DNA of 64,000 bases from Acetobacteraceae bacterium (GCA_965276815.1 CBDIBE010000010.1:623734-687733); one strand, 5' to 3'. Numbered from the stretch's first letter, positions 1,070 through 44,546 are shown. The notes: generated from the sequence alone by a model not told the origin. Program-made: numbers and translations.

Positions 1070-1897
1070 TCAGCCCTTCACCGAGCCGGCGCCGAGACCT
1101 TGGCCGAAATAGCGCTGTACGAGGGCGAACAGCAGCAGGATCGGCAGGGTGATCACCACGCCAGCCGCCATCAGCAGGTTCCAGTCGATGTCGAAGGACT
1201 GCTTGACCAGGCGCATCACGCCGGGCGGCAGGGTCATGATGGAGTCCCGGTTCAGGAACACCAGCGCGTACAGATATTCGTTGTAGGCCATGATGAAGGT
1301 GAAGACGGCGGTGGCCAGGATGCCCGGCAGCACCTGCGGCACGACGATCTCGAACATGACGGCGAAGCGGCCGGCGCCGTCGACCCGGGCCGCCGCTTCG
1401 ATATCTGGCGGAAGGGCGGTGATGAAGCCGCGCAGCAGCCAGAGCGCGAATGGCAGCGCGAAGCTGATGTAGGTGACGATCAGGCCCCAGAGCGAGTCTG
1501 CAAGCCCCGCCGAGGCGATCACCACATAGAGCGGCACCAGCAGCACCACCGCGGGCAGCAGATAGGTGAACAGGACCAATCGCCCGATCAGCGCCCGGCC
1601 GGGGAATTGCAGCCGGGTCAAGGCGTAGGCGCCGGAAGTGGCGAAGATGATTGCGATCCCGGTGCTGACGAAGGCCACGAAGACGCTGTTGCGCAGCAGC
1701 ACCGGGAAATCGGTTTGCAGCAGCAGATGCTGGAAGTGCTCGAAGGTGATGCGGGTGGGCAGCAAAGCGGGCGGATAGGCGGTCGTCTCGTCCCGCGGCT
1801 TGACCGAGGTCAGCACCATCCACAGCAGGGGGAAGCAGACGAGCAGGACCGCCGCCCAGACGATGACGTCGCGGCAGATGCGGCCGAGCAGCCTCAC
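1070..1897 (-). CDS. Carbohydrate ABC transporter permease (MalG/UgpE type)
   Basis: 275 aa with 6 TM helices and the EAA-loop region (DIEAAARVDGAGRFAVMFEIV). It overlaps the upstream permease by 4 nt. Confidence 0.85.
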   Translation of the reverse strand: MRLLGRICRDVIVWAAVLLVCFPLLWMVLTSVKPRDETTAYPPALLPTRITFEHFQHLLLQTDFPVLLRNSVFVAFVSTGIAIIFATSGAYALTRLQFPGRALIGRLVLFTYLLPAVVLLVPLYVVIASAGLADSLWGLIVTYISFALPFALWLLRGFITALPPDIEAAARVDGAGRFAVMFEIVVPQVLPGILATAVFTFIMAYNEYLYALVFLNRDSIMTLPPGVMRLVKQSFDIDWNLLMAAGVVITLPILLLFALVQRYFGQGLGAGSVKG

Positions 1898-2817
1898 CGC
1901 CGCTCGCTCCGGTCATAGGCGCCGGCATAGAGCCAGAACAGCACTAGGATGACCGCGAGCATCAGCATGGCGATGGCGGCGCCGCTGCCGATGCTCAGTT
2001 CTGGGAAGACCTGCTTGTAGATCAGCAGCGGCAGGGTCTCGGTGCTCACCTGCGGGCCGCCGCCGGTCATCATGGCGATCAGGTCGAAATCCTTGAAATC
2101 CCAGATGGCGCGCAGCAGCGTGACCATGGCGAGCACGGGCGCGAGCTGCGGCAAGGTGATCTCCCAGAAGCGCTCCCAGGCGGACGCGCCGTCGATGCGG
2201 GCGGCGTCGTAGAGCGCCAGCGGGATGGATTGCAGCCGCGCCAGGACCGCGAGGGTGACGAACGGGAAATTCTTCCAGCCGGCGACGAGGATGACGCTGA
2301 TCATGGCATTCGGCGACTGGCCGAGCCAGTTGATCGGGCTGGGAAACAATCCGGTCTGGTCGAGCAGGTAATTCAGGTAGCCGTACATGTCGTTGAACAG
2401 CCATTGCCAGACCAAAACGGCAACGACGGTGCTGAGCAAATACGGGAACAGCACCAGCGCGCGCGCCAGCGGCCGGAACACCAGCTTGCCGTGCAGTGCC
2501 AGCGCGAAGCCGACGCCCAACCCGACTTGCAGCACGAGGCAGCCGAACGTCCAGATCAGCGAGTTGCCGAACGCGCTCCAGAACTCGCCCGACTGCAGCA
2601 GCGACGCGTAATTGGCGAGGCCGACGAGCGGCCCGGCGAGCGTCAGGGTGTTCATCCGATGCAGGCTGATCGCTACCGTCTGGCACAGCGGGTAGGCGAT
2701 GAGCACGAGGAACAGCAGGATGCTCGGCGACAGCAGGAGGTAGCCGAACGCGGCGTCCCGAGTGGTCATGTCGGGCGCCCATCCCACCGGCTCCCGCTCG
2801 ACGACGGCTCGATCCAT
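1894..2817 (-). CDS. Carbohydrate ABC transporter permease (MalF/UgpA type)
   Basis: 307 aa polytopic membrane protein with the ABC TMD signature (AARIDGASAWERFWEITLP). Confidence 0.85.
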   Translation of the reverse strand: MDRAVVEREPVGWAPDMTTRDAAFGYLLLSPSILLFLVLIAYPLCQTVAISLHRMNTLTLAGPLVGLANYASLLQSGEFWSAFGNSLIWTFGCLVLQVGLGVGFALALHGKLVFRPLARALVLFPYLLSTVVAVLVWQWLFNDMYGYLNYLLDQTGLFPSPINWLGQSPNAMISVILVAGWKNFPFVTLAVLARLQSIPLALYDAARIDGASAWERFWEITLPQLAPVLAMVTLLRAIWDFKDFDLIAMMTGGGPQVSTETLPLLIYKQVFPELSIGSGAAIAMLMLAVILVLFWLYAGAYDRSERR

Positions 2818-2818
2818 C

Positions 2819-4129
2819 TCAGCTCTTGAGCAGGGCCGCGATCCGGTCGGCGCCGCGCGAAGCGGCCGCCTGCGGGGCCATGCCGCCGACGATGACGTCC
2901 TGCAGCGCCTCCACCATCACCCGCGCGTTCAGCACCTTGCCGGCGGACACGTTGATCTTGTGGTCCGGCGACTCCTTCAGCAGCGAGCGGCCCTTCGCCG
3001 TGGCCTCGATCATCCGCTCCACGTCTGGGCGATAGCGCTTGATGATCGGGTTGTCGAAATACTCGGCCGAGGTCGCGATCGACTTCAGGTTCGGCAGATT
3101 ATGGCTGGGCGTCGCATGGAGGAACTTGATGTAGTTGTCCTTCTGCATCAGCGTGAGCGCCACTGCTTTCGAGAGCCCGAAATCCTTGGCCGCTTTCGGG
3201 ATGACGAGCGACTGGAAATCGCCGGCGAACGTGTCGCGCCCGCCTTTGCCCATCGGATAAGGGACCATGGCGATCTTGTCGGCAATCTTCGGGTCGTCGG
3301 TCCCGACGTTGATCAGCACGCGGCCCGAATACGGCGCCGATGCGGCCCGGCCGCCGACGAACCCGTTGATCGTTTCGGTATACGCGTAGGATACCGACCC
3401 GGCGGGCGAGAACGGCATCAGCTGCTTGACGAAATCGAAGGCGGCGACGGTCGCCGGCGAGTTGAACGCGACGCTGCCATCGGGCGCGAAAACGAAGCCG
3501 CCGGCGCGCCAGATCGTCTGCAGCAGCAGCTTGTCGCCCATGCTGGTCTTGCCGCAGGGATAGATGGTGCCGAAGATCCCGTGCCCGGTGGTGCGCTTGG
3601 CGGTCGCGAGCATCGCGTCCCAATCGGCAAAGCCATTCGCGCCGGACTCGACGAGGTCGGTTCGATACCACAAGCAGCCAGTGGTGGTGGAGTTGACGAT
3701 CACCAGCCCGGCATGCTGGCCGGTTTTGGCGTCCTGCAGCAGCTCGAGCGAGTTCGGATAGAAGTCGGCGGCGCCGATCGTGTTGATCACATCGTCCATC
3801 GGCTGCAGCAGGCTCTGCTGATTGAGCTGCATGACGAATTCGGGCGGCATGTGCGAGATCAGGTCGGGCGCCGTGCCGGTTGCCAGGCCCGCCGCGAGCT
3901 TCGGCAGCAAATCCTCCTCCAGGAAGGCCTGGACGGTGACCTTCACGCCCGGATTGGCCTTTTCAAACCCATCGAAGATCGCGCGATAGACCACCTCCTG
4001 CTCGGGGCCGCGCTGCGTGGTCCAGAAAGTGAAATTTCGCGGTGTCTGGGCGCGGACGATCATGGGGGCAACGACCGCACCGGCAGCGCCCAGCAGCAAC
4101 GCGCGTCGTCCGCTATGTCCCTTCGGCAT
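2819..4129 (-). CDS. Extracellular solute-binding protein, family 1 (sugar/polyol-type ABC substrate-binding protein)
   Basis: 436 aa with an N-terminal signal peptide (RRALLLGAAGAVVAPMIVRA). Size and composition are typical of a family-1 SBP. It is the first gene of the SBP-TMD-TMD-ATPase operon on the minus strand. Confidence 0.8.
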   Translation of the reverse strand: MPKGHSGRRALLLGAAGAVVAPMIVRAQTPRNFTFWTTQRGPEQEVVYRAIFDGFEKANPGVKVTVQAFLEEDLLPKLAAGLATGTAPDLISHMPPEFVMQLNQQSLLQPMDDVINTIGAADFYPNSLELLQDAKTGQHAGLVIVNSTTTGCLWYRTDLVESGANGFADWDAMLATAKRTTGHGIFGTIYPCGKTSMGDKLLLQTIWRAGGFVFAPDGSVAFNSPATVAAFDFVKQLMPFSPAGSVSYAYTETINGFVGGRAASAPYSGRVLINVGTDDPKIADKIAMVPYPMGKGGRDTFAGDFQSLVIPKAAKDFGLSKAVALTLMQKDNYIKFLHATPSHNLPNLKSIATSAEYFDNPIIKRYRPDVERMIEATAKGRSLLKESPDHKINVSAGKVLNARVMVEALQDVIVGGMAPQAAASRGADRIAALLKS

Positions 4130-4190
4130 TTAAGGTCTCCTTTTCAGTTTCGCTGCTGCCCGTTCGACAGCCGTTTGCCGCCCGCGGCGC

Positions 4191-5114
4191 TCAACATTCG
4201 CGCAACTGGGCCAAGACACGCTCGAGGCGGCCGTATTCCAAAGCGGGCAGCTTCATTGCCGGCGGGCGCACCGCGTCGCATTCGAGGCGGCCGAGCAAAT
4301 GCAGGCACGCCTTCAACCTTGTTGTCGCCCTTCCGCCGGGGCTCTCGCGGTAGATCGCGACCGCGAGAGGATACAGCGCCTCGTGCAAGGCGCGGCCGCG
4401 CGCCCAATCGCCGGATTCGGCGGCGTTCCAGAGCGAAACGACAAGCTCCGGCACGATCGCCGCCAGGCTGACTTGGGTGCCGACGCTGCCGATCAGCCAG
4501 CTCGTCAGCAGGTGCTCGTCGCCGGAGCCGAGCATCGCGACGTCTGGCCGGACCGCGTTCACCGCGCGCCGGTTCGCCTCATAGGTCGCCACCTCCCAAC
4601 TGCCATCCTTGATGCCGATGACCCTTGGATCCGAGGCCAGTTCGGCCAGGCGTTCCGGCGAGTACGGCATTGCCCCAGCGCGGACCGAGGCTTGATACAG
4701 CACGAGCGGTAGGCCGCAGGCATCGACGATGTGGCGGTGGTGGATCGCGGCCGTGTCCTCGTCCTGGAACAGACCCCAGCCATTCGGCGGAAAGACCAGC
4801 ACCGCGTCGGCGCCTGCCGCCTCGGCGTCGCGCGCCAGGTCGGCCGCCGCCAGGCTGCATTCGGCGTTGACGCCGGAGGTGAGGAACACGCTGGGGCGGA
4901 TGGCGGCGCGGACCACTTCGATCACGCGGCGCGTCTCCGCACGGCTCAGCATGAAGTTCTCGCCCGCATGGCCGTTGATCAGCAGGCCGGTTATGCCTTG
5001 GGTGCCGGCGACCTGAGCCACGTGCCGGGCCAGCGCCGCCTCGTCGATCGAGAAATCGGGCCGCATCGGGCAGACGGTCGCCGCATGCACCCCGGCCAGC
5101 GGCGACGCGCTCAA
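4191..5114 (-). CDS. DapA-family class I aldolase/deaminase (dihydrodipicolinate synthase / N-acetylneuraminate lyase superfamily); candidate pyrroline-4-hydroxy-2-carboxylate deaminase-like enzyme
   Basis: 307 aa with DapA-like fold motifs (GLLINGHAGE, VIGIKDGS) and a TTG start. It is translationally coupled to the upstream FAD oxidoreductase. Confidence 0.75.
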   Translation of the reverse strand: MSASPLAGVHAATVCPMRPDFSIDEAALARHVAQVAGTQGITGLLINGHAGENFMLSRAETRRVIEVVRAAIRPSVFLTSGVNAECSLAAADLARDAEAAGADAVLVFPPNGWGLFQDEDTAAIHHRHIVDACGLPLVLYQASVRAGAMPYSPERLAELASDPRVIGIKDGSWEVATYEANRRAVNAVRPDVAMLGSGDEHLLTSWLIGSVGTQVSLAAIVPELVVSLWNAAESGDWARGRALHEALYPLAVAIYRESPGGRATTRLKACLHLLGRLECDAVRPPAMKLPALEYGRLERVLAQLREC

Positions 5115-6228
5115 GTGGCCACGCCTTCGCGCGCCAAGAGCCGGTCGATTGGGAACAACGGCAGCGCCGGCTCGTGGCCGAGGAGCGTGTCGGCGAGCAG
5201 TTTGGCGAGATACGGGCCGCTCGTGTAGCCGGAATGCACGCTGCCGCAGACATAGGCGCCGGGGACGCCCGGCACCGGGCCCGCGGCGGGCAGCGCGTCC
5301 GCAGTCTCCGCCTCCAGCCCCGCCCAGGCGCGGACCATCCGCGCATTCCGCAGCCCGGGGATCGCGTGGCAGGCGAGCCGCGCATTGCCGACCAAATTAT
5401 CCGGCAGCAACTCGGCGCCGCCGCGCACGCGGTCGCCGCGCCCCTGCCAGCCGCCGCCGATCACCACGGTCCCGTGCGGATATTGCTTGAGCGACAGCAG
5501 GCCGCTCGCCACGCCGACGACCGTGCGCATCACCGGTGCGATCCGTTCGGTGACCGAAAGCTGGTTCACCCGCACCGTGATCGGCAGCGAAACACCTAGC
5601 CAGCCCATCATCTCCTCGATCCAAACCCCGCCCGCCAAAACGACTCGCCGGGCCCGCACCGGACCCGCCGCGCTTCGGACATCGAAGCCGTTTCCCCTCG
5701 TTTCTAAGCAAGTCACGGGCCGCTGCTCGTGCAGCGCCACGCCGGCCTCCAGCAATGCCGCGCGGAACGCCAGGCCGGTCAGGTAGGCGTTCGCGAACCC
5801 ATCGACCCGGCAATACCCGGCCAGCCGCACATGCGAGGATAATCCGGGCTCGACGCGCTGCGCCTCGGCGCGCCCGATCAGGCTGATCGGCGCGCCAGCT
5901 TCCCGCCGCTTGCGGGCGCGCAAGCTCAGCAGCTCCTCCTCCTGCTCGGTGAAGGCGAGCGACAGCCCGTCGCACACCACGACGCCGACATCGTGACCCA
6001 GCCAGTCGCGCGCGCTGGCCCACATGGCGTGCGCCCGCAGCGCGTAGGGGATCAGGGCGACGCGGGTCATCTGCAAGGTCAGCGTGCCGGCGTTGACGCC
6101 CGACGCCTCGCGGCACAGGCTGCCGCGCTCCAGCAGCGTGGTGCGCATGCCGCCGCGCGCGCACATCAGGGCGACCGTGCTGCCGATGACGCCGCCGCCG
6201 ATCACGGCAAGGTCGAACTCGGTCACAG
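5111..6228 (-). CDS. FAD-dependent oxidoreductase, beta subunit of an HcnC/LhpB/OoxB-like heteromeric dehydrogenase
   Basis: It carries the DAO-family Rossmann motif DLAVIGGGVIGSTVAL. The real start is probably a GTG near 6226 (VTEFDLAVIGGG). The track ORF extends to 6415 with an Arg/Pro-rich spurious N-terminus that overlaps the alpha subunit. Confidence 0.75.
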
Positions 6229-7620
6229 CGGCGCGGGCAGCGGCACGGGGATGTCGTCGTAGCTGAATGGGCCGAGCAGGTCTTCCAGCGGGACCGGATG
6301 CAGCGGCGGACGCATGGTCCATCGCCCGGCCGCGGCGCGCGAGCCGAGGTGGCGCGCCATCAGCTCGGCAGCGGCCTCGCCGCAGCTCCGGCCCTGGCAG
6401 GGCCCCATGCCGCACCGCGTAAAACTCTTCAACTGGTTGACCTCACGCGCCCCGGCCGTGATTGCGGCTTCGATCTCGGCCCGGGTCACATCCTCGCATC
6501 GGCAGACCACGGTTCCGTCGGGAATGGCGTCGAGCATGCCAGGCCGGAAACGGGTCAGGCGCGAGATGGCGTCGGCGAATCGCGTCGCGCGGCGATAGGC
6601 GTGTTGCAAGCGCCGGATACCCGCGACCGTGCGCCCGGCATCGATTGCAGCCGCCCGGCCGGCGATACGGCCGGCCAATGCGGCGGGAAACGCGCCACGG
6701 ACGCCGGCGCCGTCGCCTGCGGCATAGAGACCACGGATCGAGGTGCGCCCCGCCGGGTCGAGCGTCGGCACCCAACCGCGACTTGCTGCATCGAATTCGT
6801 GGGCCGCGTGCAGGAGGCGCGGTATGTCCGAGGACGGCGACAAGCCGTGGCCGACGGCCAGCGCGTCGCAGTCCATCCAGCGTTCCGACCGTCCATCGGG
6901 CTTGCCGTCGGCATCCACGCTGCCGATCCGGACGCGGCGGACCGCGCCAGCGCCTTCCACCTTCAGGACGGTGTGGCGGAACAGAACGGGGATGCGCCGC
7001 CGGGCCAGGGCGGCGGTCCAGCCGAGGCCTTGCGCCAGTAGCGCCGGGCGGCGGCCGAGCGAGGGCAGGGCGGCCAGCCACTCCGTGCGGGAAGCGAGAT
7101 CCACGACCGCCGCCACCTCGATGCCGGCCCCGGCCAGCTTGGCCGCCACCGCGACCAGCAACGGGCCGCATCCCGCAACCACCACGCGCCGACCCGGCGA
7201 CATCGCATTCGCCTTCAGCAGCACCGTCGCGCCAGCGAGCCCGATCACCCCGGGCAACGTCCAGCCGGGAAACGGCACCACCCGCTCATACGCCCCGGTC
7301 GCCGCGACCAGACGTGGCGCCTCGATCGTTTCCGGTCCCGACGGGCCCAACGCATGGATGCGGAAGCCTGGCTCGACCGACCAGACCGCCCGTCCGGGCC
7401 GGAAATCGACCGGAGCGGCGGCGAGCGTCCGGCGCAAATGCTGGCCGCGGCGCAGATCCGGGTCGGTATGCAGCGGCGCGTTGGCGGGCGCCCGATAAAC
7501 CTGGCCGCCCGCGGCCGCGGCCCGGTCCAGCAGGATCACATGCAACCCCACGCGCGCCGCCTCGATCGCCGCCCAGCTCCCGGCCGGGCCGGCGCCGACC
7601 ACAGCCAGATCGCACTTCAC
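6223..7620 (-). CDS. FAD/NAD(P)-binding oxidoreductase, alpha subunit (HcnB/LhpF/OoxA-like) with a C-terminal BFD-like [2Fe-2S] domain
   Basis: 465 aa with the N-terminal motif DLAVVGAGPAGSWAA and a second Rossmann region VVVAGCGPLLVAVAAKL. The C-terminus has the Cys cluster CRCEDVTRAEIEAAITAGAREVNQLKSFTRCGMGPCQGRSC. A GTG start overlaps the stop of the small subunit. Confidence 0.8.
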   Translation of the reverse strand: MKCDLAVVGAGPAGSWAAIEAARVGLHVILLDRAAAAGGQVYRAPANAPLHTDPDLRRGQHLRRTLAAAPVDFRPGRAVWSVEPGFRIHALGPSGPETIEAPRLVAATGAYERVVPFPGWTLPGVIGLAGATVLLKANAMSPGRRVVVAGCGPLLVAVAAKLAGAGIEVAAVVDLASRTEWLAALPSLGRRPALLAQGLGWTAALARRRIPVLFRHTVLKVEGAGAVRRVRIGSVDADGKPDGRSERWMDCDALAVGHGLSPSSDIPRLLHAAHEFDAASRGWVPTLDPAGRTSIRGLYAAGDGAGVRGAFPAALAGRIAGRAAAIDAGRTVAGIRRLQHAYRRATRFADAISRLTRFRPGMLDAIPDGTVVCRCEDVTRAEIEAAITAGAREVNQLKSFTRCGMGPCQGRSCGEAAAELMARHLGSRAAAGRWTMRPPLHPVPLEDLLGPFSYDDIPVPLPAPL

Positions 7621-7889
7621 AGCGTCACGCGCATCCCGTCAGAAACGCTCATCAGGCAGGATTGGCGCGCGACACCATCCACCCGCACCAGGCACTCCTG
7701 GCAAACGCCCATGAAACAGAACGCACCGCGCGCCCCGCCGCGTGGACTGTCGCGCAGGTGCAGCTTGCCAGCCGCCATCAGCACGGCAGCGAGCGTCTCC
7801 CCTTCAAAGGCATCGATGTCATCGTCGTTGACCCACAGGCTGACCCGGCAGCCGCGCCGCGCGTCTCGCGTCAATCGGACCGCCGTCAT
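7617..7889 (-). CDS. Small (2Fe-2S)-binding subunit (HcnA/LhpE-like gamma subunit)
   Basis: 90 aa with the Cys motif FCFMGVCQEC...SC. It is the first gene of the 3-subunit dehydrogenase operon. Confidence 0.7.
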   Translation of the reverse strand: MTAVRLTRDARRGCRVSLWVNDDDIDAFEGETLAAVLMAAGKLHLRDSPRGGARGAFCFMGVCQECLVRVDGVARQSCLMSVSDGMRVTL

Positions 7890-7998
7890 GCAAACCCCTG
7901 TCAGTTAGCCCAGCGATATACAGAGGCAGTGCCGGCGCGCAATCCCTGCCTGGCATGTTGCTTGCTTCTCATCACACGCCGCATCAGGACGGCACGAG

Positions 7999-8815
7999 GA
8001 TGATCGTCATGCGGTTTGCGGGGTGGTTCAGGGCCGTTTTGCTTTTGGTATTGGGGCTGACTGGGATGGCGCATGGCGCGACGCTCGACGAGATTCTCAA
8101 GGCCGGCGAGATCCGGGTCGGCGTCAACCCGACCCTGCCGCCGCGGGCGATGTATGACGACAAGAACCAGATCACCGGTTTCGAGCCGGCGGTCGCCGCC
8201 GACATCGCCAAGCGCCTCGGCGTGAAGCTCACTCTCGTGCCGGTGGGCTCGCCGGACCGCATCCCGTTCCTGGCCGCCAACCGGATCGACATCGTCATGG
8301 GCGCGATGAGCCGGACCGCCGACCGGGCCAAGGTGATCGACTTCACCGTCCCGCTGCATTCGGAGAATTATGGCATCATCACCCGCGCCGATACCGGCAT
8401 TTCCAGCCTGGCGGACCTGAACAAGGACAGCGTCACGCTGGTCCAGGTGCGCGGCACCACCATGATTCCGGTGCTGCAGAAGCTGGTGCCGAACGCCAAG
8501 CTGCTGCTGCTCGACAACTACGACGACCGCGACCGCGCCATCGTGCAGCACCGTGCGGCGGCCTCGGTAGATGGCATCGACACCGCCACTTTCCGGCTGA
8601 AGAACTACGCCAGCACGGATTGGAAGCTGATCGCGCTGCCCGAACTCGGCGTCACTTGGTCGTGCCTCGGCATTGCCAAGGGCAATTACAGCCTGCGCGA
8701 CTACCTCAATGTCGCCCTTTACGAGATGCAGACCGGCGGTGAGGTCGAGGCGATGTGGGAGCAGTGGTTCGGGCGGCCGATGGACACCAAAGTGCCGACC
8801 ACCCCCTGGTTCTAG
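7999..8815 (+). CDS. Amino acid (polar, family 3) ABC transporter substrate-binding protein, copy 1
   Basis: It has a signal peptide (MRFAGWFRAVLLLVLGLTGMAHG) and the family-3 SBP fold motifs (IRVGVNPTLPP, GFEPAVAADIAKRLGVKL, IDIVMGAMSRT). The track start at 7955 is probably an N-terminal over-extension. Confidence 0.8.
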
Positions 8816-8821
8816 AAGTTC

Positions 8822-9499
8822 ATGGCCTACACGCTGCAATGGGGTCAGGTGACGCCGTATTTCGGCTACCTGCTCGGCGGTGCCTTGGTTTCGCTTTACT
8901 TGGCCTTGATCGGCTTCGCCGGCGGTTTCGTGATCGGGCTGCTCAATGCGAGCGCCATGCGCATGCTGCCGCGAACCGCCGGCCGGGTCGCCGCGGCCTA
9001 CGTGGTGTTTTTTCTCAATACGCCGTTGCTGGTGCAGATCTTCTTCATCTTCTTCGGCCTGCCCGATCTCGGCCTGGTGCTTGACCCCTATACCGCGGTG
9101 CTGATCGGCATTGCCCTCAACGAAGGCGCCTATCTCACGCAGACGCTGCTCGGCGGCTTCAACGCGGTGCGGCGCGAGGAGCTGGACGCGGCGGCGACGC
9201 TGGGCCTGTCCGGGCCGCAGACCCTGCTGTACGTGATCTTGCCGCAGGTCTGCAAATCGGTGTACCCGGCACTGTCCAACCAATACATCCTGATCACGAT
9301 GACGACCTCGATCGCCGCCATATTCGGCATCGAGGAGCTGACCGGGCGCGCCTACAACGTCAACGCCGAGACCTTCCGCTCGCTGGAGATCTTCTCGCTG
9401 GCGGCGGTGGACTATGTCGGGCTGACGCTCGTGGCGAGCCTCTTGCTGGCCCTGGCCGGGCGCTGGTTGTTCGGGCTGCGGCTCAAACTTTCGATCTGA
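8822..9499 (+). CDS. Amino acid ABC transporter permease (His/Gln/opine-type)
   Basis: 225 aa with 5 TM helices and the ABC TMD EAA-like loop (LDAAATLGLSGPQTLLYVILPQ). Confidence 0.85.
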   Translation: MAYTLQWGQVTPYFGYLLGGALVSLYLALIGFAGGFVIGLLNASAMRMLPRTAGRVAAAYVVFFLNTPLLVQIFFIFFGLPDLGLVLDPYTAVLIGIALNEGAYLTQTLLGGFNAVRREELDAAATLGLSGPQTLLYVILPQVCKSVYPALSNQYILITMTTSIAAIFGIEELTGRAYNVNAETFRSLEIFSLAAVDYVGLTLVASLLLALAGRWLFGLRLKLSI

Positions 9500-10218
9500 T
9501 GGCGGATCTGCTGCATGGGATCGTGCTAGAAGCGCCGCGCTTCTTTTCATACTACAACATGCTGCTGTTTGGGCAGGCGTTGCTGAACACGGTCGGGTTG
9601 TCGCTGATCGGTGGAGCGATCGGCTTCGTCGCCGGCGGCCTGCTCGCCGTCATTCGCACGAAGCGGCTGGGGGCGCCCCTGCCGCTGCGCTTGCTCGCCA
9701 CGCTCTATGTCGAAATATTCCGGCGCATACCGTTCCTGGTGAAGCTACTCTGCGTGTTCTTCGGCTTCCAGTATATCGGGCTGCAGGCGCCGCTGTTCGT
9801 GGTGGCGCTGGTGACGGTGTCCTTGTCCGCCTTGGCCTTTGCGGCCGAGCTGGTCCGCGCCGGGCTGCAATCCGTGCACGCCAACCAGGTGGATGCGGCC
9901 GAGGTGATGAACTTCAGCCGGGTGCAGATCCTGCTCAGGGTAATGCTGCCGCAGTCCTGGCCGGTGATCCTGCCGCCGGCCGTCGCCTATCTGGCTGGGT
10001 TCGTGAAATCGACCTCGATCGCGTCGCAGGTGGGCGTCATGGAGCTGACCTACGCCGCCAAGATCATGAACTCCAAGGGCTTCTCGGCGATACTCTGTTT
10101 CGGCACCGTGCTCGTGTTGTATTTTGCCGTCTGCTATCCGCTGAGCCTGTCCGGCGCGTGGCTGGAGCGCCGTCTCGACCGCGGCCGCCGGCCGTTCCAG
10201 ATCGTCCAGACCCCGTAG
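9499..10218 (+). CDS. Amino acid ABC transporter permease, second TMD
   Basis: 239 aa. It is a paralog of the preceding permease (VDAAEVMNFSRVQILLRVMLPQ), with stop/start overlap. Confidence 0.85.
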   Translation: MADLLHGIVLEAPRFFSYYNMLLFGQALLNTVGLSLIGGAIGFVAGGLLAVIRTKRLGAPLPLRLLATLYVEIFRRIPFLVKLLCVFFGFQYIGLQAPLFVVALVTVSLSALAFAAELVRAGLQSVHANQVDAAEVMNFSRVQILLRVMLPQSWPVILPPAVAYLAGFVKSTSIASQVGVMELTYAAKIMNSKGFSAILCFGTVLVLYFAVCYPLSLSGAWLERRLDRGRRPFQIVQTP

Positions 10219-10226
10219 GAGTGACA

Positions 10227-11171
10227 ATGACAGCAGCCCACACCGCACCCGGCATGCAATACCTCGCCGGCGCCGTCGACTGCCACATCCACGCCTGCCC
10301 GCATCTCAACGGCAGGTCGGTCACCGTCTTCGAGGCGGTGCGCCAGGCCGCGGCTTCCGGCATGCGGGCGATTGGGCTGATGGACAATTTCTGCAACAGC
10401 GCCGGCTACGCGGCGCTCGCCAATAGCGAGCTCGGTCATCTCGGCGTCGACGTGTTCGGCGGCCTGATCATGCAGCCCACCGCCGGCGGCATCACCGCGG
10501 CGGCGGCGCAGGCGGCGCTGGGCTACGGCTATGGCCCGGGGACCGCGGCGCGCTTCATCTCGCTGCCGACGCATCACACACGCTATATCGCGACCCGTGA
10601 GGGCCGCAGTCCGGCCTTCCTTGAGACTACTTTCGGCGTCCCCGCCAACGGCATCGTCCCCGACCCGGTGCCGGAGATCATGGACATGGTCGCCGAAGCC
10701 GACGCCGTCTTCGATTGCGGCCATGTCTCCGGCCCCGAGGCCGTCGCTCTCGCCGAGGAAGCCCGCCGCCGCGGCCTGACCCGCATCCGCACCCACGGCA
10801 ACCGCTATGCCCCAGACGAGATCCGCGCCATCGTCGCCGCCGGCGGTGTTGTAGAATTCTCCTTCTTCATCTTGACCCATGCCGTCACCGTCGAGCTGAC
10901 CCATGTCGATCAGGAGAAGCACAAGGTGACCGGCGGCGGCATCACGATCGGCGACATGGCCGAGCGCATCCGCGCCGCCGGCCCCGCCCACGCGATCCTC
11001 TCCAGCGATTGCGGCGTGTTCCTGCTGCCGCCGCCGGTCGAGGGGTTTCGCGAGTTCCTGCTGCTTGCCGAGAGCGCCGGATTCACGCCGGCGGAAATCC
11101 GCCTGATGAGCAGTACTAACCCGGCCAAGCTCTTCCGGGTCGGCGACCGAAGCCTCGCCTTGGCCGCTTGA
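10227..11171 (+). CDS. Metal-dependent hydrolase of the amidohydrolase/TIM-barrel superfamily (H-x-H motif DCHIHACPH)
   Basis: About 315 aa. There is an AGGAG RBS 6 nt upstream of ATG 10227. The protein has Asp/His-rich metal-ligand positions. It is embedded between the permeases and the second SBP. Confidence 0.6.
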   Translation: MTAAHTAPGMQYLAGAVDCHIHACPHLNGRSVTVFEAVRQAAASGMRAIGLMDNFCNSAGYAALANSELGHLGVDVFGGLIMQPTAGGITAAAAQAALGYGYGPGTAARFISLPTHHTRYIATREGRSPAFLETTFGVPANGIVPDPVPEIMDMVAEADAVFDCGHVSGPEAVALAEEARRRGLTRIRTHGNRYAPDEIRAIVAAGGVVEFSFFILTHAVTVELTHVDQEKHKVTGGGITIGDMAERIRAAGPAHAILSSDCGVFLLPPPVEGFREFLLLAESAGFTPAEIRLMSSTNPAKLFRVGDRSLALAA

Positions 11172-11188
11172 ACGAAAAGGGGACCATC

Positions 11189-11992
11189 ATGACACGCACC
11201 ATCCGCTTCGCCCTGTTCGCTCTCCTGCTCATGCCGCTGGGTGCGCAGGCGCAGGTTCACACGCTGGACCAGGTGCTATCGGCGAAAACGCTGACCGTCG
11301 GCATCAACCCGACGCTGCCGCCGCTCGCCTCGTTCAACGACAAGAATGAAATGGTCGGCTACGACGTCGATATCGCACAGAAGCTCGGCGCGATGCTGGG
11401 TGTGCCGGTGCAGCTCGTGCAAGTCGGCTCGCCCGACCGGGTCCCCTACGTCGCCACCGGCAAGGTGGACATCGTGATGGGCGCGCTGACCCGCACGCCC
11501 GACCGCGCCAAGGTGATCGACTTCTCGGTGCCGATCCAAACCGAGGCGCTGAGCGTGCTGACCACGGAAGGCAAGCCGTATACGAGCTGGCAGGACCTCA
11601 ACAAGCCGGACGTGACCCTCGTGCAGGTCCGTGGCACGACGCCGATCGACTTCATCAAGGTGAATGTGGCCTCGGCCAAGCTGCTGCTGCTGGACAACTA
11701 CCCCGACGCGATCCGCGCCCTCGCGCAGGGGCGTGGCGACGCGATGATCGACGTGGTCGACTACGTCGGCAACTTCACCAAGAACTATCAGGTGAAATGG
11801 AAGATCTTGAAGGAGCCGATCGGCTCAGTCGACTATGACTGTATTGGCGTCGCCAAGGGCAATGACACGCTGCGGCGCTGGCTGAATGTCGCGTTGTTTT
11901 CGTTGAACCAGTCCGGCTTCATGGGCGACACGTATAAAAAATGGTTTGGCATCGACATGGTCGTGCCGGTGAAGGCCGATCCTTATTTCTAA
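11189..11992 (+). CDS. Amino acid ABC transporter substrate-binding protein, copy 2 (paralog of 7999..8815)
   Basis: It has a signal peptide (MTRTIRFALFALLLMPLGAQA) and the same family-3 SBP motifs, for example KTLTVGINPTLPPLASFNDKN, GYDVDIAQKLGAMLGV and VDIVMGALTRTPDRAKVIDFSVP. Confidence 0.8.
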   Translation: MTRTIRFALFALLLMPLGAQAQVHTLDQVLSAKTLTVGINPTLPPLASFNDKNEMVGYDVDIAQKLGAMLGVPVQLVQVGSPDRVPYVATGKVDIVMGALTRTPDRAKVIDFSVPIQTEALSVLTTEGKPYTSWQDLNKPDVTLVQVRGTTPIDFIKVNVASAKLLLLDNYPDAIRALAQGRGDAMIDVVDYVGNFTKNYQVKWKILKEPIGSVDYDCIGVAKGNDTLRRWLNVALFSLNQSGFMGDTYKKWFGIDMVVPVKADPYF

Positions 11993-12011: not shown

Positions 12012-12764
12012 CTCGAGCTGGCCGGCGTCTCGGCCGCTTACGGCACGCAAGCGGTGCTGCGCGAGGTCAGCCTGTCGGTGCCGCGCGGGACGGTGCTGGG
12101 GCTGATCGGCCCGTCAGGTTCGGGCAAGTCCACCGTGCTGCGGGTGCTCGCCGGGCTGCTGCGGCCGAGCGCGGGGACGGTCCAGGTGGATGGCGAGCTC
12201 GTCGATTATGGCGACCGCCGGTCGGTCCGGGCAGTGCGGCGGCGACTCGCGATCGTGTTCCAACAATATAACCTGTTCCAGAACATGGACGTGCTGCGCA
12301 ACGTGACGCTTGCCCCCGTCAAGGTGCAGCGCCGCCCACAGCGAGAGGCCGAGGCGGAGGGGGTGGCGTTACTGCAGAAGGTGGGGCTCGGGGACAAGCT
12401 CCGCGCCCATCCTGCGGAACTGTCCGGCGGTCAGCAGCAGCGCGTCGCCATCGCGCGGGCGCTGGCGCTGCGGCCGGAGATCCTGCTTTTGGACGAGATC
12501 ACCTCCGCGCTCGATCCCGAGCTGGTCGGCGAGGTGTTGGACACCATCCTTCTGCTGGCCTCGGAAGGCATGACCATGCTGCTCGTCTCGCACGAGATGG
12601 GGTTCGTCGGCGACGTGGCGGCGCAAGTGGCCTTCATGGACAAGGGCCGCGTCGTGGAGACCGGTCCGCCGGAGGCGGTGTTCGTCACCCCGCGAGAGCC
12701 GCGCACGCAGGAGTTCCTGGCCCGCGTGCGGCGCGAGCCCCGCCACAGCCTGGCCAAGGCTTAG
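12012..12764 (+). CDS. Amino acid ABC transporter ATP-binding protein (GlnQ/HisP family)
   Basis: It has Walker [10 protein letters not shown], signature [14 protein letters not shown] and Walker [12 protein letters not shown]. The N-terminus [11 protein letters not shown] lies upstream of the track's GTG. There is no canonical ATG in frame after the upstream stop, so the start is uncertain. Confidence 0.8.
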
Positions 12765-13774: not shown

Positions 13775-15259
13775 TTGATGTTTGCAGGGCGGCTACAGGC
13801 GCGGTTTTCGATTGTCGTCATGGTGCTTGCCGGTGTTGCCGGCCATGCTCAGGCGGCCGTGGTTAATCAATGGGTGCAGTTCGCGCCCAACAACACCGTG
13901 CTGCTCCGCGCTATTGAGAGCGACCCCAGCAATGGCTGCCCAGCCGCCTCGGTCGACGGCAATCCAGTCACGCTGACGCAACGCGGCACCGTCACCACCC
14001 CGGCAGAGGCGCCGCAGACCTACTATCCCGTCCTGATGTGTGAGGCCTCGCTGTCCGCTTTCGGGCATACCTCGGCCAATATCGGCGGTGTGACGCTCAA
14101 GATGCCGGTGACCACGCCGCACCGGATCCTGTTCCTCGGCGACACCGGGTGCCGGGTGACCGCATCGGTGTCCAGCACGCAGAACTGTGACGATCCGACG
14201 CAGTTCCCGCTGCAATTCCTCTCCAACTATGCGGCCAGCTTCAAGCCCGACCTGATCGTCCACGTCGGCGACTTCCTCTACCGTGAGCAGCCATGCCCGG
14301 CCGGGTTTGCCGGCTGCGCGGGCAACCCCGCCTTCGACAACTGGGATAGCTGGAACGCCGACTGGTTCGGCCCGGCGAAGAACCTGCTCGCGGCCGCGCC
14401 GATCGCGATCACGCGCGGCAACCACGAGAGCTGCAACCGCGGCGCCCATGGCTGGTTCCGCCTGCTCGACGCCCATCCCTATAACCAGGCGGCCGTCGAC
14501 TGCATCGGCCAATACGCGCCCATGGTCGGCGCCCCCGGCACGAAGACGACCTATATCGGCCAGTATGACTACACCGCGCCTTACGTGGTGAACGCCGGGC
14601 AGGTCTCGTTGCTGATGTTCGACTCCAGCGACTCCAACACCACCGCGCCGGACAACACGTCCCTGACCCAGGCGACGAACCCGACCTACCCGTCGATGAC
14701 GCTGCCGCAAATCTACGCGGCGCAGCTGAACGCCGTCCTGCCCTCGCTTGCCAGCACGAACGTGTTCTACATCACGCATAAATCCAGCTTCGACGTCCGG
14801 CCCGCCCTGATCAACGGCGCGCTCTCCGGCGGCGATGCGACGCAGCAATATGTGTTCAACGGTGTGAGCCCGAACGGCGGCGTGCCGCCGCAGATCAAGC
14901 TGCTAATCTCCGGCCACGACCATCAGTTCGAGGCGGTGAACTTCGCCAACACGAATTTCGCGCCGCAATTGACGACCGGCAACGGCGGTACTCTGCTCGA
15001 CAACAATAACGGCAACCAGCCGCAGGGCTTCTCGCCCGACACCGCGCCGGGCAACCAGGGTGCGGCATACGCCCTGCCTGGGCTCTCCGGCACGCCGACC
15101 ATCACCATCCAGTCCGACGCCGACCAGGCCGAATACGGCTTCACCGTCATGGACGCGGTGACCGGCGGCTACGTCGCCAACATCTACAACATGGCGTCCG
15201 GCAAGCTGGCGCGCTGCGTAACGCAGCTCAGCCCGCGCCAGATGATCTGCACGCAGTAG
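13775..15259 (+). CDS. Secreted calcineurin-like metallophosphoesterase
   Basis: It has a signal peptide (VMVLAGVAGHAQA). The metallophosphoesterase motifs are present in order: GDTG, GDFLYRE, GNHE, GHDHQFE. A GC hairpin sits at about 15276-15297 downstream. Confidence 0.75.
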   Translation: MMFAGRLQARFSIVVMVLAGVAGHAQAAVVNQWVQFAPNNTVLLRAIESDPSNGCPAASVDGNPVTLTQRGTVTTPAEAPQTYYPVLMCEASLSAFGHTSANIGGVTLKMPVTTPHRILFLGDTGCRVTASVSSTQNCDDPTQFPLQFLSNYAASFKPDLIVHVGDFLYREQPCPAGFAGCAGNPAFDNWDSWNADWFGPAKNLLAAAPIAITRGNHESCNRGAHGWFRLLDAHPYNQAAVDCIGQYAPMVGAPGTKTTYIGQYDYTAPYVVNAGQVSLLMFDSSDSNTTAPDNTSLTQATNPTYPSMTLPQIYAAQLNAVLPSLASTNVFYITHKSSFDVRPALINGALSGGDATQQYVFNGVSPNGGVPPQIKLLISGHDHQFEAVNFANTNFAPQLTTGNGGTLLDNNNGNQPQGFSPDTAPGNQGAAYALPGLSGTPTITIQSDADQAEYGFTVMDAVTGGYVANIYNMASGKLARCVTQLSPRQMICTQ

Positions 15260-15408
15260 CGTCTCGGATCAGAAGCTCGCCGGCCTGAGCCGGCGAGTTC
15301 CTGGTCGGCACGCGGAAAACAACTCAGTACAATTCGCTTCGCGGCGGCGCCGGTTGCGGGTAAATCCGAGACCGGCGCCTTCCGGCTGGGCGATGAGGAC
15401 TACGACCA

Positions 15409-16431
15409 ATGCTGCACGGTCACGACCACGACGGTCACCATCACCATGACCACGACGATGATGGGGATGACGTCCCTGTCAGTTCGCCGGGCTCAAGGCG
15501 GCTCCGGGTCGCGCTGCGCTTTGCTTTTGCGGGAGTGATCGTGGCCGCCGCGGTGTTCGCATCGGCCTCGGTGATGGTGGGTGCGGGGGAGGCCTCGGTG
15601 ATCACCCGCTTCGGCGACCTGTCGCGCGTGCTGACCAAGCCGGGTCTGGCCTGGAAGCTGCCGACGCCGCTGGAAAGCGTCATCCCGGTCGATCTGCGGC
15701 TGCGCACCACCTCCACCGGCCTGCAGGATGTCGGCACCAAGGACGGGCTGCGCATCCTCGTGCAGGCCTATGTCGCTTGGCAGGTGCCCGCCGACCCCGC
15801 CCATATCCGGCAGTTCGTGCGCGCCGTGCGCAACGACCCGGACGAGGCGGCGCGCCAGCTCCGCAGCCTGGTCGGGGCGGCGCTGCAGGTGACGGCCAGC
15901 AGCTTCGAGCTTGCCGACCTGGTCGACACCGACGCGGCGCGGCGCAAGCTGCCCGAATTCGAGCAGCGCTTGCTCGCGCAGATCGGCCCTTCCGCCTTGG
16001 ACGTCTACGGCGTGCAAATCCAGCAGGTCGGGATCGAGCGGCTGACCTTGCCGGACGCGACCTTGGCCGCGACGGTCGCCCGCATGCGCGCCGAGCGCGA
16101 GACCGTGGCCGCCGCTCGCACGGCGGAGGGGCTGCGCGCGGCGGCGGAGCTGCGCTCGGCGGCGGCGCGCGACTCGCGGATCACCGTGTCGAACGCGCGG
16201 ACCGAGGCGGCCGATATCGAGGCTAAATCGCGCGAACAGGCGGCGGCGATCCAGGCGCACGCCTATCAGGCCGACCCCGACCTCTACACGATGCTCCGCT
16301 CGATGGACACGCTGGGCAGCGTGGTCGGCCCCAACACGCGGTTGATCCTGCGCACCGACGCGGCGCCGTTCGACGTGCTGGTCAAGCGGCCCGGCGCGGC
16401 CCCCGATCCGACGGCGGGCGCCAGCCGTTGA
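15409..16431 (+). CDS. SPFH/band-7 domain membrane protein (HflC-like) with an N-terminal His/Asp-rich tract
   Basis: The N-terminus is MLHGHDHDGHHHHDHDDDGDD, followed by one TM helix and then an SPFH domain (VITRFGDLSRVLTKPGLAWKLP...). The stop overlaps the next gene's start (ATGA). Confidence 0.75.
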   Translation: MLHGHDHDGHHHHDHDDDGDDVPVSSPGSRRLRVALRFAFAGVIVAAAVFASASVMVGAGEASVITRFGDLSRVLTKPGLAWKLPTPLESVIPVDLRLRTTSTGLQDVGTKDGLRILVQAYVAWQVPADPAHIRQFVRAVRNDPDEAARQLRSLVGAALQVTASSFELADLVDTDAARRKLPEFEQRLLAQIGPSALDVYGVQIQQVGIERLTLPDATLAATVARMRAERETVAAARTAEGLRAAAELRSAAARDSRITVSNARTEAADIEAKSREQAAAIQAHAYQADPDLYTMLRSMDTLGSVVGPNTRLILRTDAAPFDVLVKRPGAAPDPTAGASR

Positions 16432-17504
16432 GCGCCGCGGCGCACCCGGCCGAAGGACCGATCGCGCAGTCGATCGCGACCGGGTTCAAGGTGCTGTTCG
16501 CCGCGATCGCCGTGCTGGCGGTCGCCTGGGCCGCATCGAACTGGCGGCAAGTGCCGGCCGATGCGCAGGCGGTCGTGCTGCGGTTCCGCCGGATCGTCGC
16601 GGTCAAGCAAGCGGGGCTGACCCTGTCCTGGCCACGGCCGATCGGCAGCGTGGAGCTCATACCCGGCGAACAGCGGCTGCTGACGGTGCGCACGCAGTCC
16701 ATCGCCCGCGTTGGCGGCATGACCGATGTGTTCACCGCAGCCAACGAAGCGAACTTGCCCGAGGGCAGCGCCGAATACCTGACCGGGGATGGTGGCGTGG
16801 TGCTGCTGGGCGCCACACTCAGCTACCGGGTGACCGACGGCGCCGCGTACTACCTCGCCCAGACGCATGTCGCCCCGGCCTTGCAGCGGTTGTTCGCGGC
16901 GAGCGCCGTCGACGTGCTGGCCACCCGCAAGCTGGACGACGTGATGGTGGCCGAGCCGGTGCGCGCCAACGCCGACCTCCAGCGCACCGCGGACGCCGAG
17001 GCGAGGCGGCAGGCGTTGCGGGGCGACCTGGTCGAGGCCGTCAACAAACGCCTGGCGGATCTCGCCGCGCATGGCGCGTCCCTTGGCGTCGAGGTCGCGC
17101 GGATCGATTTGGAGCCGTCGCTGCCGCCGCAAGCCAAGATCGCCTACGACCAGGTCCTCGTCGCCGCGCAGATGGCCGAGCAGGGCATCGCCGACGCGCG
17201 CACCGAGGCCACACGCACGCTGCAAGTCGCCGACCGGGAGCGCGACCGGTTGCTGGAAGCCGCCAAGGCGTCGGCGAATGAGCGGGTGGACGAGGCGCGG
17301 TCGCGCACGGCGGCGATCCTGGCGGTCCGCGCGAGCATGACGCCGACGACGCGGAGCGCCGTGCTCGATCAGGTGTATCGCGACCAGCTCGCGGTGCTGC
17401 TGCAGAAGGTTGGCCGGGTCACCGCCGTGGATCCGCGCGGCGGAGCGCAGGTGATGCTGCCGGCGACGATTCCGCTCCCCGCGGCACCGAGTTTCAATCG
17501 ATGA
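16428..17504 (+). CDS. SPFH/band-7 domain membrane protein (HflK-like partner)
   Basis: 358 aa with one TM helix and an SPFH domain (VVLRFRRIVAVKQAGLTLSWPRPIG) plus a coiled-coil C-terminus. It is translationally coupled on both sides. Confidence 0.75.
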   Translation: MSAAAHPAEGPIAQSIATGFKVLFAAIAVLAVAWAASNWRQVPADAQAVVLRFRRIVAVKQAGLTLSWPRPIGSVELIPGEQRLLTVRTQSIARVGGMTDVFTAANEANLPEGSAEYLTGDGGVVLLGATLSYRVTDGAAYYLAQTHVAPALQRLFAASAVDVLATRKLDDVMVAEPVRANADLQRTADAEARRQALRGDLVEAVNKRLADLAAHGASLGVEVARIDLEPSLPPQAKIAYDQVLVAAQMAEQGIADARTEATRTLQVADRERDRLLEAAKASANERVDEARSRTAAILAVRASMTPTTRSAVLDQVYRDQLAVLLQKVGRVTAVDPRGGAQVMLPATIPLPAAPSFNR

Positions 17505-19471: not shown

Positions 19472-19522
19472 GTGACGTAACGTTCCTGGTCCATCGTGCC
19501 GGGTTTTTGGAAGGGTATTTTT

Positions 19523-44371: not shown

Positions 44372-44546
44372 GGGGCGTCGCTCTGCACGATAAGTGCGAC
44401 CATGCGTCACAGGTAACGCGGCTGACCGCGCGGTCAAGGCATGCTGATTGCTTGGCCGTGATTCGGGTCGAGGACTACCTGCGCAGTGTTTAAGGTGGCC
44501 GCAAGGGTTATCCTCGGCGAGTGCGGCAGCGGCAAGGGCGGTGGTG

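Follow-up and report, generated by a model that had tools for sequence, protein, structure and literature searches.

What does a bacterium do with a flavoenzyme whose three subunits resemble those of hydrogen cyanide (HCN) synthase, octopine dehydrogenase and D-hydroxyproline dehydrogenase, and whose genes run directly into the gene of a DapA-like protein? The question is raised by positions 4191-7889, on the minus strand, of a 64,000-nucleotide stretch of DNA from an Acetobacteraceae bacterium (GCA_965276815.1 CBDIBE010000010.1:623734-687733), which in its full length is called the window here. A first-pass annotation had taken these genes for an HcnABC/LhpBEF/Oox-like heteromeric flavoprotein joined to a DapA-family enzyme, and this assignment to families was right. 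As placed by sequence comparison, the dehydrogenase (gamma-alpha-beta in what follows) is a member of the HcnABC/OdhABC/LhpBEF family of heteromeric flavoenzymes that appears to lie outside all characterized branches. The reading we favor, and hold to be on balance probable, is that the locus encodes a two-step catabolic module, "oxidize, then cleave", which acts on an imported amino, imino or N-substituted amino acid.

Four intact open reading frames (ORFs) make up the module. The gamma gene (7889..7617) encodes a 90-residue plant-type [2Fe-2S] ferredoxin-like protein equivalent to HcnA, OdhC and LhpE (Pfam Fer2_4, E=4.9e-20). The alpha gene (7620..6223) encodes a 465-residue equivalent of HcnB and OdhA, in which a flavin/nicotinamide adenine dinucleotide (FAD/NAD) fold (Pyr_redox_2, 5.2e-22) is joined to a C-terminal BFD-like [2Fe-2S] domain (Fer2_BFD, 1.5e-12) and an SO_alpha_A3 domain (1.6e-12). 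The catalytic beta subunit (6226..5111; 371 residues, GTG start) is a DAO-family FAD amine dehydrogenase (Pfam DAO, E=1.8e-44). The fourth gene (5114..4191; 307 residues) encodes the DapA-like protein, a class I (Schiff-base) lyase of the dihydrodipicolinate synthase/N-acetylneuraminate lyase (DHDPS/NAL) superfamily (Pfam DHDPS, E=1e-35), which we assign to an "NGHAGEN" subfamily. All three junctions are 4-nucleotide start/stop overlaps, GTGA between gamma and alpha, GTGA again between alpha and beta, and TTGA between beta and the DapA-like gene. Module anatomy and translational coupling were therefore as first annotated.

The corrected start of beta was confirmed as well. A longer ORF (5111-6415; 434 residues) was rejected as the real gene; the Pfam DAO match begins only at its residue 68, and the GTG that had been proposed at about 6226 is supported on several counts: it overlaps the alpha stop codon, it places the GxGxxG motif at residues 10-15, and its 371-residue product is identical to the public gene call and of the length of beta orthologs (370-375 residues). 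The 465-, 90- and 307-residue products likewise equal public gene calls exactly, and third-position G+C is 0.78-0.84 in the four gene frames. Very long ORFs of 513-569 residues that run antisense to or overlap the genes, at 2762-4471 (plus strand), 6462-8003 (plus) and 7901-9550 (minus), were rejected as high-G+C artifacts because their translations are Arg/Pro-rich and of low complexity and because they failed the third-position test; G+C is 63-73% in 1-kb sliding windows over the first 16 kb of the window.

Each subunit carries the cofactor motifs expected of its family, for which two ADP-binding motifs, two types of [2Fe-2S] motif and an R-x-W motif have been defined (PMC4575208). The gamma subunit has the cysteine motif C58-x4-C63-x2-C66-x11-C78, alpha has C373-x-C375-x27-C403-x4-C408, both alpha and beta contain GxGxxG, and beta contains R299-A-W301. 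The module thus has the three subunits and the complete motif set of the OpnDH type, and the only deviation is the alpha spacer, x27 as against x15-20 in the published motif. Domain content and lengths match those of HcnA and HcnB (104 and 464 residues) and of orthologs, with a shortfall of only ~5-15 residues, and the earlier description of the subunits as non-canonical did not hold. Characterized relatives form a dye-linked alpha-beta-gamma complex with FAD, flavin mononucleotide (FMN) and Fe-S centers (PMC4575208). By analogy with OdhABC and D-hydroxyproline dehydrogenase, the complex encoded here is probably alpha4beta4gamma4, with two FAD, one FMN and Fe-S centers.

Where in this family does the dehydrogenase belong? 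As references we used OoxB-C-A from pTiA6, B1-C-A-B2 clusters from Azospirillum, pTiEU6 and Paraburkholderia, and HcnABC and LhpA-B-E-F from Pseudomonas aeruginosa contigs, the last two reached through source-named HcnC and hydroxyproline epimerase entries; the HcnC and LhpA probes served only to retrieve these source-named entries and contigs. The B1-C-A-B2 arrangement has been shown for the Bradyrhizobium japonicum OdhB1-C-A-B2 octopine dehydrogenase (PMC4575208), and our B2-type references were recognized by cluster architecture, not by sequence comparison with BjOdhB2 itself. The gamma subunit is 36-43% identical to HcnA, LhpE and OoxC (43% to OoxC overall, 51% across a 66-residue local match). 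For the alpha subunit, identity is 31.5% with HcnB, 36% with LhpF and 30-38% with OoxA/OdhA-type subunits; alpha also aligns to residues 129-566 of the sarcosine oxidase alpha subunit, SoxA.

The identities of the beta subunit run from 21-23% with four source-named HcnC proteins, through 26% with P. aeruginosa LhpB and likewise with OoxB and the type-1 subunits, up to 32-35% with OdhB2-type (B2) subunits, its nearest reference clade. Among plasmid records, only two matches exceeded 50% identity; the others reached at most 36%, and an annotated OoxB 27%. In neighbor-joining trees, beta subunits linked to a DapA-like gene formed their own clade with 100% bootstrap support (97% when a fused form of the enzyme was included). 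This clade was joined to the B2-type clade at 99%, as its sister and outside it, and HcnC and the type-1 Oox/OdhB1 subunits each formed a separate clade (100%). Clustering of beta with HcnC, named by the first-pass annotation as an outcome that would overturn its proposal, was therefore not found. Solved relatives are distant (glycine oxidase, 109 bits; PH1364, 69 bits; SoxA, 52 bits), and beta orthologs 73-80% identical to the window protein occur in many Hyphomicrobiales, Methylobacterium and Acetobacteraceae.

The fused form is found in some Acetobacteraceae relatives, where a single gamma-alpha-beta protein of 950-971 residues is encoded beside a DapA-like gene (locus L015, 8108-10960; locus L021). 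It is only 32-37% identical to the split subunits, and the window beta is 35% identical to it. The closest beta relative (80% identity; metagenome contig L101) belongs to a split module that lies beside a 971-residue fused gene (3053-5968) with a DHDPS-family gene of its own, and GntR, PTE-like and DUF6282 genes are also present there.

Architecture adds further differences from known systems. The module shares with Odh, Oox and Nox the three subunits and their domains, the same types of cofactor motif and a clustered ATP-binding cassette (ABC) importer, but the Odh/Oox order is B-C-A(-B2) rather than gamma-alpha-beta, and the window has one beta subunit instead of two. In the archaeal dye-linked L-proline dehydrogenase PDH1 (PDB 1Y56), gamma and alpha together align to PH1363 and beta to PH1364 (69 bits); the window module differs from PDH1 and SoxABDG in that gamma is a separate polypeptide and in having neither the folate-binding C-terminal half of SoxA nor a delta subunit. 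A heterotetrameric sarcosine oxidase was rejected: alpha has 465 residues as against ~965-1000, only residues 129-566 of SoxA are matched, there is no delta gene, and alpha and beta score far below the SoxA and SoxB family cut-offs (137 vs 1164 and 70 vs 529 bits).

The DapA-like protein is likewise set apart from its characterized relatives. A Pfam DHDPS domain, a TIM barrel, covers its full length, but it falls below every NCBIfam cut-off (dapA TIGR00674, 104.4 vs 206.15 bits; KdgD-type, 103 vs 278), and its best solved relative scores 84 bits. In DHDPS, the catalytic residues are Thr44, Tyr107, Tyr133 and Lys161, and Arg138 serves aspartate semialdehyde (E. coli DapA numbering). Alignment to DHDPS structures and to orthologs showed that the Schiff-base Lys169 and Tyr140, the equivalents of Lys161 and Tyr133, are invariant, a pair common to DapA, HOGA1, KdgD, YagE and N-acetylneuraminate lyase, all of which have the DHDPS domain. 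These two are the only DHDPS catalytic or substrate residues retained. An invariant GHAGE replaces GTTGE, with His49-Ala50 at the positions of Thr44-Thr45. Orthologs have Asn, Ser or Gly at the Tyr107 position, followed by an invariant Trp, and have no equivalent of Tyr107; the Arg138 position varies (Arg, Gly, Ser or Asn). A bona fide DHDPS, the second outcome that was to count against the first-pass proposal, was accordingly rejected on the sub-threshold TIGR00674 score and the missing or unconserved Thr44/Thr45, Tyr107 and Arg138 equivalents.

These features define a small subfamily with the signature NGHAGEN / FPPxxW / K(E/D)GSWE / SGDEHL. At E<=1e-30, 86 of 1.84 billion 50%-identity cluster representatives were matched. 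About 10 full-length representatives have complete NGHAGEN, K(E/D)GSW and SGDEHL motifs, within a wider and equally uncharacterized clade that has GHAGE; apparent fusion proteins among the representatives were uninformative.

The two enzymes are also held together across genomes. DapA-like relatives were scanned over the contigs of one genome per species, in which 456 places encode one. We analyzed 89 loci with a DapA-like ortholog, the window included, 47 of which also have beta or alpha. In 45 of these 47, beta is followed immediately by the DapA-like gene. A polar amino-acid ABC system accompanies the module in 38-41 (an SBP3 binding-protein gene in 40, adjoining permeases in 41), and a GntR/FCD regulator in 33. 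Candidate amidohydrolases are frequent partners: hydA, encoding dihydropyrimidinase/D-hydantoinase, in 20 loci, DUF6282 in 22 and a PTE-like hydrolase in 13, with at least one of the three in 33 of the 47. The linked hydA genes are genuine, scoring 522-584 bits with TIGR02033, whose cut-off is 393. On plasmids of Paraburkholderia, Burkholderia and Pantoea, gamma-alpha-beta, the DapA-like gene, hydA and a zinc-ribbon gene form one operon; hydA follows the DapA-like gene on these beta- and gammaproteobacterial plasmids, with a 4-nucleotide overlap in two of three. M20 carbamoylase-type or ArgE/DapE-type hydrolases adjoin the module in several loci (a carbamoylase in 4), and an alanine-glyoxylate-type aminotransferase is adjacent in Pantoea. 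The module lies on chromosomal contigs in Methylobacterium and Roseomonas and, on an Acidisoma plasmid, forms a nine-gene cassette with transposase genes on either side.

A bipartite element precedes gamma in 22 of 37 loci. It consists of the palindrome (T)TGTATACA(A) followed, at a fixed spacing of ~10 nucleotides, by TGTAAAGC, and is found 45-150 nucleotides upstream of gamma in the related loci (248 in one). The combination of TTGTATACAA and TGTAAAGC is 17-fold enriched over its background frequency in the same loci. It fits a GntR-type operator, and the linked GntR/FCD regulator probably acts through it.

How might the two enzymes act in sequence? In the two-step mechanism we favor, the divergent polar amino-acid ABC system, whose synteny with the module is conserved, would import the compound, and gamma-alpha-beta would oxidize its C-alpha-N bond at the FAD of beta. 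Electrons would then pass through the FMN, alpha FAD and [2Fe-2S] centers to the respiratory chain, and not to NAD or O2, if the acceptor is that of characterized relatives. The product, a 2-imino or 2-oxo acid or a cyclic delta-1-imine-2-carboxylate, would be handed to the DapA-like enzyme. In Oox/Odh operons, a gene for the imine deaminase RidA follows the dehydrogenase genes; in the window, the DapA-like gene occupies this slot, as would suit an enzyme that takes the imine further. With the observed Lys169, the DapA-like enzyme would form a Schiff base and then perform C3/C4 chemistry, either a retro-aldol cleavage that yields pyruvate and an aldehyde, or the loss of a 4-substituent by elimination, as in LhpC and KdgD.

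Enzymes of the DHDPS/NAL superfamily, among them DHDPS, NAL, KDG aldolase, HOGA1, KdgD and pyrroline-4-hydroxy-2-carboxylate (Pyr4H2C) deaminase, use a Lys Schiff base to carry out reactions at C3-C4 of 2-oxo acids. By analogy, this shared chemistry points to a 4-hydroxylated (gamma-hydroxy) or otherwise 4-substituted amino or imino acid as the most likely class of substrate. The frequent amidohydrolase partners suggest that in many lineages the substrate is probably first freed by dihydropyrimidinase/D-hydantoinase, DUF6282, PTE-like or M20 proteins, its precursor being a cyclic amide, a lactam or an N-carbamoyl compound. In the best explanation of the sequence comparisons, the substrate is not trans-4-hydroxy-L-proline, octopine, nopaline or glycine.

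Several points weigh against the two-step module. First, no characterized member of the beta or the DapA-like clade was found in the literature and structure libraries searched; nor did the literature searched contain anything relevant to this combination of genes or to DUF6282. Second, the substitutions in the catalytic triad (His for Thr, and no Tyr107 equivalent) mean that the DapA-like enzyme could follow a chemistry other than the one seen in known family members. Third, ~35 Bradyrhizobium loci have a DapA-like ortholog without gamma-alpha-beta, and the pairing is therefore not obligatory. Fourth, the accessory steps may not apply in the window, which has neither the GntR gene nor its operator and whose cluster has no hydA. 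Finally, the bootstrapped trees that define the beta clade are distance-based and comprise ~22 sequences.

In the Bradyrhizobium loci, the DapA-like ortholog belongs to a conserved cluster. This cluster (for example in locus L040, 2070-10909) combines a LacI regulator, three DHDPS-family paralogs, a family III CoA-transferase, an acyl-CoA dehydrogenase, two MaoC-like proteins and a polar amino-acid ABC system; Phe replaces the catalytic Tyr in one of the three paralogs. NCBIfam gave no equivalog for the CoA-transferase, acyl-CoA dehydrogenase or MaoC neighbors.

One further reading departs furthest from what is known. Here the locus would be the core of an undescribed pathway in which co-clustered amidohydrolases (dihydropyrimidinase, DUF6282, PTE-like) open a cyclic-amide derivative of an amino acid (of hydantoin, dihydropyrimidine or lactam/lactone type), the new-clade dehydrogenase oxidizes the resulting acid, and the His-for-Thr NGHAGEN lyase captures the imine or 2-oxo product, possibly by direct transimination and with lyase chemistry unlike that of all characterized family members. 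We regard this as a tentative possibility, distinctly less probable than the two-step module.

An opine-type secondary-amine dehydrogenase is unlikely, but has the nearest references on its side. In this scheme, gamma-alpha-beta cleaves an N-(1-carboxyalkyl) amino acid and the DapA-like enzyme, in place of RidA, takes the 2-oxo acid, released or still bound as imine, for example a 4-hydroxy-2-oxo acid. The references closest to beta are the second betas of B1-C-A-B2 clusters, one of them on the succinamopine Ti plasmid pTiEU6; gamma is at its highest identity with OoxC, alpha is 34-38% identical to OoxA/OdhA, and the binding proteins encoded near the module are of the His/Arg/opine family. Against this, the B2-type references are assigned by cluster architecture, beta shares no more than 26% identity with OoxB and type-1 subunits, and the binding proteins are ~25% identical to OccT along a short stretch. 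No gene for an NAD(P)-dependent opine synthase/dehydrogenase was seen in six annotated or Pfam-tagged related loci, and RidA occurs in 1 of the 89 loci, a Bradyrhizobium locus without gamma-alpha-beta. Moreover, the keto-acid moieties known from opines, pyruvate and 2-oxoglutarate, need no lyase.

Less probable again is salvage of D-amino acids from hydantoins or dihydropyrimidines, with the module as its terminal part. A hydantoinase and a carbamoylase or deacylase would free a D-amino acid, gamma-alpha-beta would deaminate it oxidatively, and the 2-oxo acid formed, such as oxaloacetate or 4-hydroxy-2-oxoglutarate, would be decarboxylated or split by the DapA-like enzyme. The genuine hydA genes within or beside the module, which share an operon with the DapA-like gene in Paraburkholderia, Burkholderia and Pantoea, speak for it, as do the adjacent M20 carbamoylase-type or ArgE/DapE-type hydrolases and the Pantoea aminotransferase. 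However, hydA is absent from 27 of the 47 loci and from the window cluster, the sole window copy being 37 kb away, and a carbamoylase is present in 4 loci only. The D-stereospecificity is a supposition, and in part this scheme refines the two-step module rather than excluding it.

A hydroxyproline route, which we consider slightly less probable still, is the one that the first-pass annotation saw as matching the gene combination. D-hydroxyproline dehydrogenase and Pyr4H2C deaminase would together make alpha-ketoglutarate semialdehyde (KGSA), with the epimerase and KGSA dehydrogenase encoded elsewhere or with cis-4-hydroxy-D-proline imported as such. The logic is that of LhpB/E/F with LhpC, known also as HypD, in P. 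aeruginosa, Azospirillum brasilense and Sinorhizobium meliloti, where a heteromeric flavin dehydrogenase acts ahead of a DHDPS-family enzyme (PMC4575208, PMC4113996), and Pyr4H2C deaminase has itself been placed in the DHDPS superfamily (PMC4113996). Several real hydroxyproline clusters, such as those of Tistrella and S. meliloti, combine a GntR regulator, a polar amino-acid ABC importer, an FAD dehydrogenase and a DHDPS-family gene, and some also have no adjacent aldehyde dehydrogenase.

The match breaks down on closer comparison, first at the dehydrogenase. Lhp and Odh genes are ordered beta-gamma-alpha (PMC4575208), and the P. aeruginosa cluster reads LhpA-beta-gamma-alpha with the epimerase, as against gamma-alpha-beta without one in the window; beta, at 26% identity to LhpB, belongs to another clade; and LhpF (417 residues) has neither Fer2_BFD nor SO_alpha_A3, both of which are present in the window alpha. 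Second, the DapA-like protein shares 22.5% identity with S. meliloti HypD (31 bits by BLASTP) and 25% with its DHDPS-family counterpart in the Burkholderia cenocepacia hydroxyproline cluster. It is less similar to HypD/LhpC-type proteins than to ordinary DHDPS, and these proteins lie on a separate branch of the tree and have GSMGD or GMVGE where it has GHAGE. Third, no proline-racemase-family gene was found within ~10 kb in the 89 loci or anywhere in the 64-kb window, although the real clusters examined have one, and the 89 loci contained neither a HypH-like aldehyde dehydrogenase nor a HypD-type DHDPS. The first-pass annotation had itself noted that epimerase, KGSA dehydrogenase and regulator are missing and had argued against plain L-hydroxyproline as substrate; the former is true of the whole window, in which we found no proline-racemase-family gene, no aldehyde dehydrogenase and no GntR of the module-linked kind, and the latter agrees with the 89 loci. 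When LhpBEF-type clusters were sought on plasmids by way of epimerase matches, only clusters with monomeric dehydrogenases were found.

Oxidation of glycine to HCN is very improbable and was rejected: gene order and alpha architecture equal those of HcnABC from Pseudomonas and Chromobacterium and subunit sizes are similar (90/465/371 vs 104/464/417 residues), but beta lies outside the HcnC clade, and the window genes are coupled to a lyase kept in 45 of 47 loci and flanked by importers within an import and catabolism cluster, whereas P. aeruginosa hcnABC stands alone, with no transporter or DHDPS gene.

Taken by sequence, then, the locus represents a separate branch of the HcnABC/Odh/Lhp family that is firmly tied to a DHDPS-like subfamily, itself distinct; this is incremental metabolic knowledge and no new principle. 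The pair is conserved across soil- and plant-associated alpha-, beta- and gammaproteobacteria, sometimes on plasmids and once between transposase genes. Its proteins carry public labels such as "sarcosine oxidase subunit beta", "FAD-dependent oxidoreductase" and "dihydrodipicolinate synthase family protein". Identification of the substrate would put right a mis-annotation that is widespread, give the HcnABC/Odh/Lhp family a further branch, and define the function of the DHDPS-like subfamily with the altered triad and probably that of DUF6282 too.

Which window genes accompany the module? A divergent operon on the plus strand, overlooked in the first-pass annotation, encodes a polar amino-acid ABC system with a DUF6282 protein and is the conserved partner of the module. 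Its gene order is an SBP_bac_3 polar amino-acid periplasmic binding protein (7955..8815; Pfam E=1.7e-32), two permeases (8822-9499 and 9499-10218; both BPD_transp_1), the DUF6282 protein (10227..11171), a second SBP_bac_3 binding protein (11168-11992; E=7.8e-32) and an ATPase (listed ORF 12054-12764; ABC_tran, E=2.1e-36). The first binding-protein gene probably begins at 8000 or 8009 instead, ahead of the signal peptide. The true start of the ATPase gene probably lies slightly upstream of 12054, the ABC_tran domain beginning at residue 2 of the listed ORF. The best solved relatives of the first binding protein bind cationic or acidic amino acids (~100 bits), and comparison of the binding proteins with the PDB returned generic polar and cationic amino-acid binders only, with no clue to the ligand.

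The DUF6282 protein (Pfam DUF6282, E=2.8e-42) is a probable metal-dependent hydrolase. Its family has an invariant D-x-H-x-H motif and further invariant His and Asp residues, as in metal-dependent amidohydrolases. Comparison with the PTE-like neighbor family by hhalign was weak (40% probability), the family profile matched nothing significant among PDB sequences, and a single-sequence AlphaFold2 model was unusable (mean pLDDT 38).

Between gamma and the ABC operon lies a divergent control region of the window (7890..8008). The TTGTATACAA plus TGTAAAGC element of the relatives is absent from it, only ATATACA being left at 7916-7922, and no sigma-70 consensus was found. An imperfect palindrome, AGGCAG..CTGCCT at 7924-7951, is unrelated to that element. 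By comparison with the related loci, both the GntR regulator gene and its operator element appear to have been lost from the window.

Downstream of the DapA-like gene, on the minus strand, are genes for a CUT1 sugar-type ABC transporter: a binding protein (4129..2819; Pfam SBP_bac_8/SBP_bac_1), two permeases (2817..1894 and 1897..1070; BPD_transp_1) and a MalK-like ATPase, recognized from its translation, that runs from ~1067 to the window edge. The DapA-like gene is separated from the binding-protein gene by 61 nucleotides with a good Shine-Dalgarno sequence and no terminator, and the transporter is possibly co-transcribed with the module. The best solved relative of this binding protein is E. 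coli YcjN (64 bits). A homolog was found in none of the 88 related loci; the transporter was rejected as part of the conserved module and may be a lineage-specific addition.

Farther away, the sole window copy of hydA is a stand-alone gene (44448-45995, plus strand; 652 bits against the NF009941 cut-off of 647), whose product is 58% identical to module-linked hydA products elsewhere and which lies between genes for a TauE-like exporter and a PLD-family protein. Unrelated neighbors at 13775-20197 (plus strand) encode a calcineurin-like phosphoesterase, two SPFH/Band-7 proteins, a P-type ATPase and a small PEP-CTERM protein.

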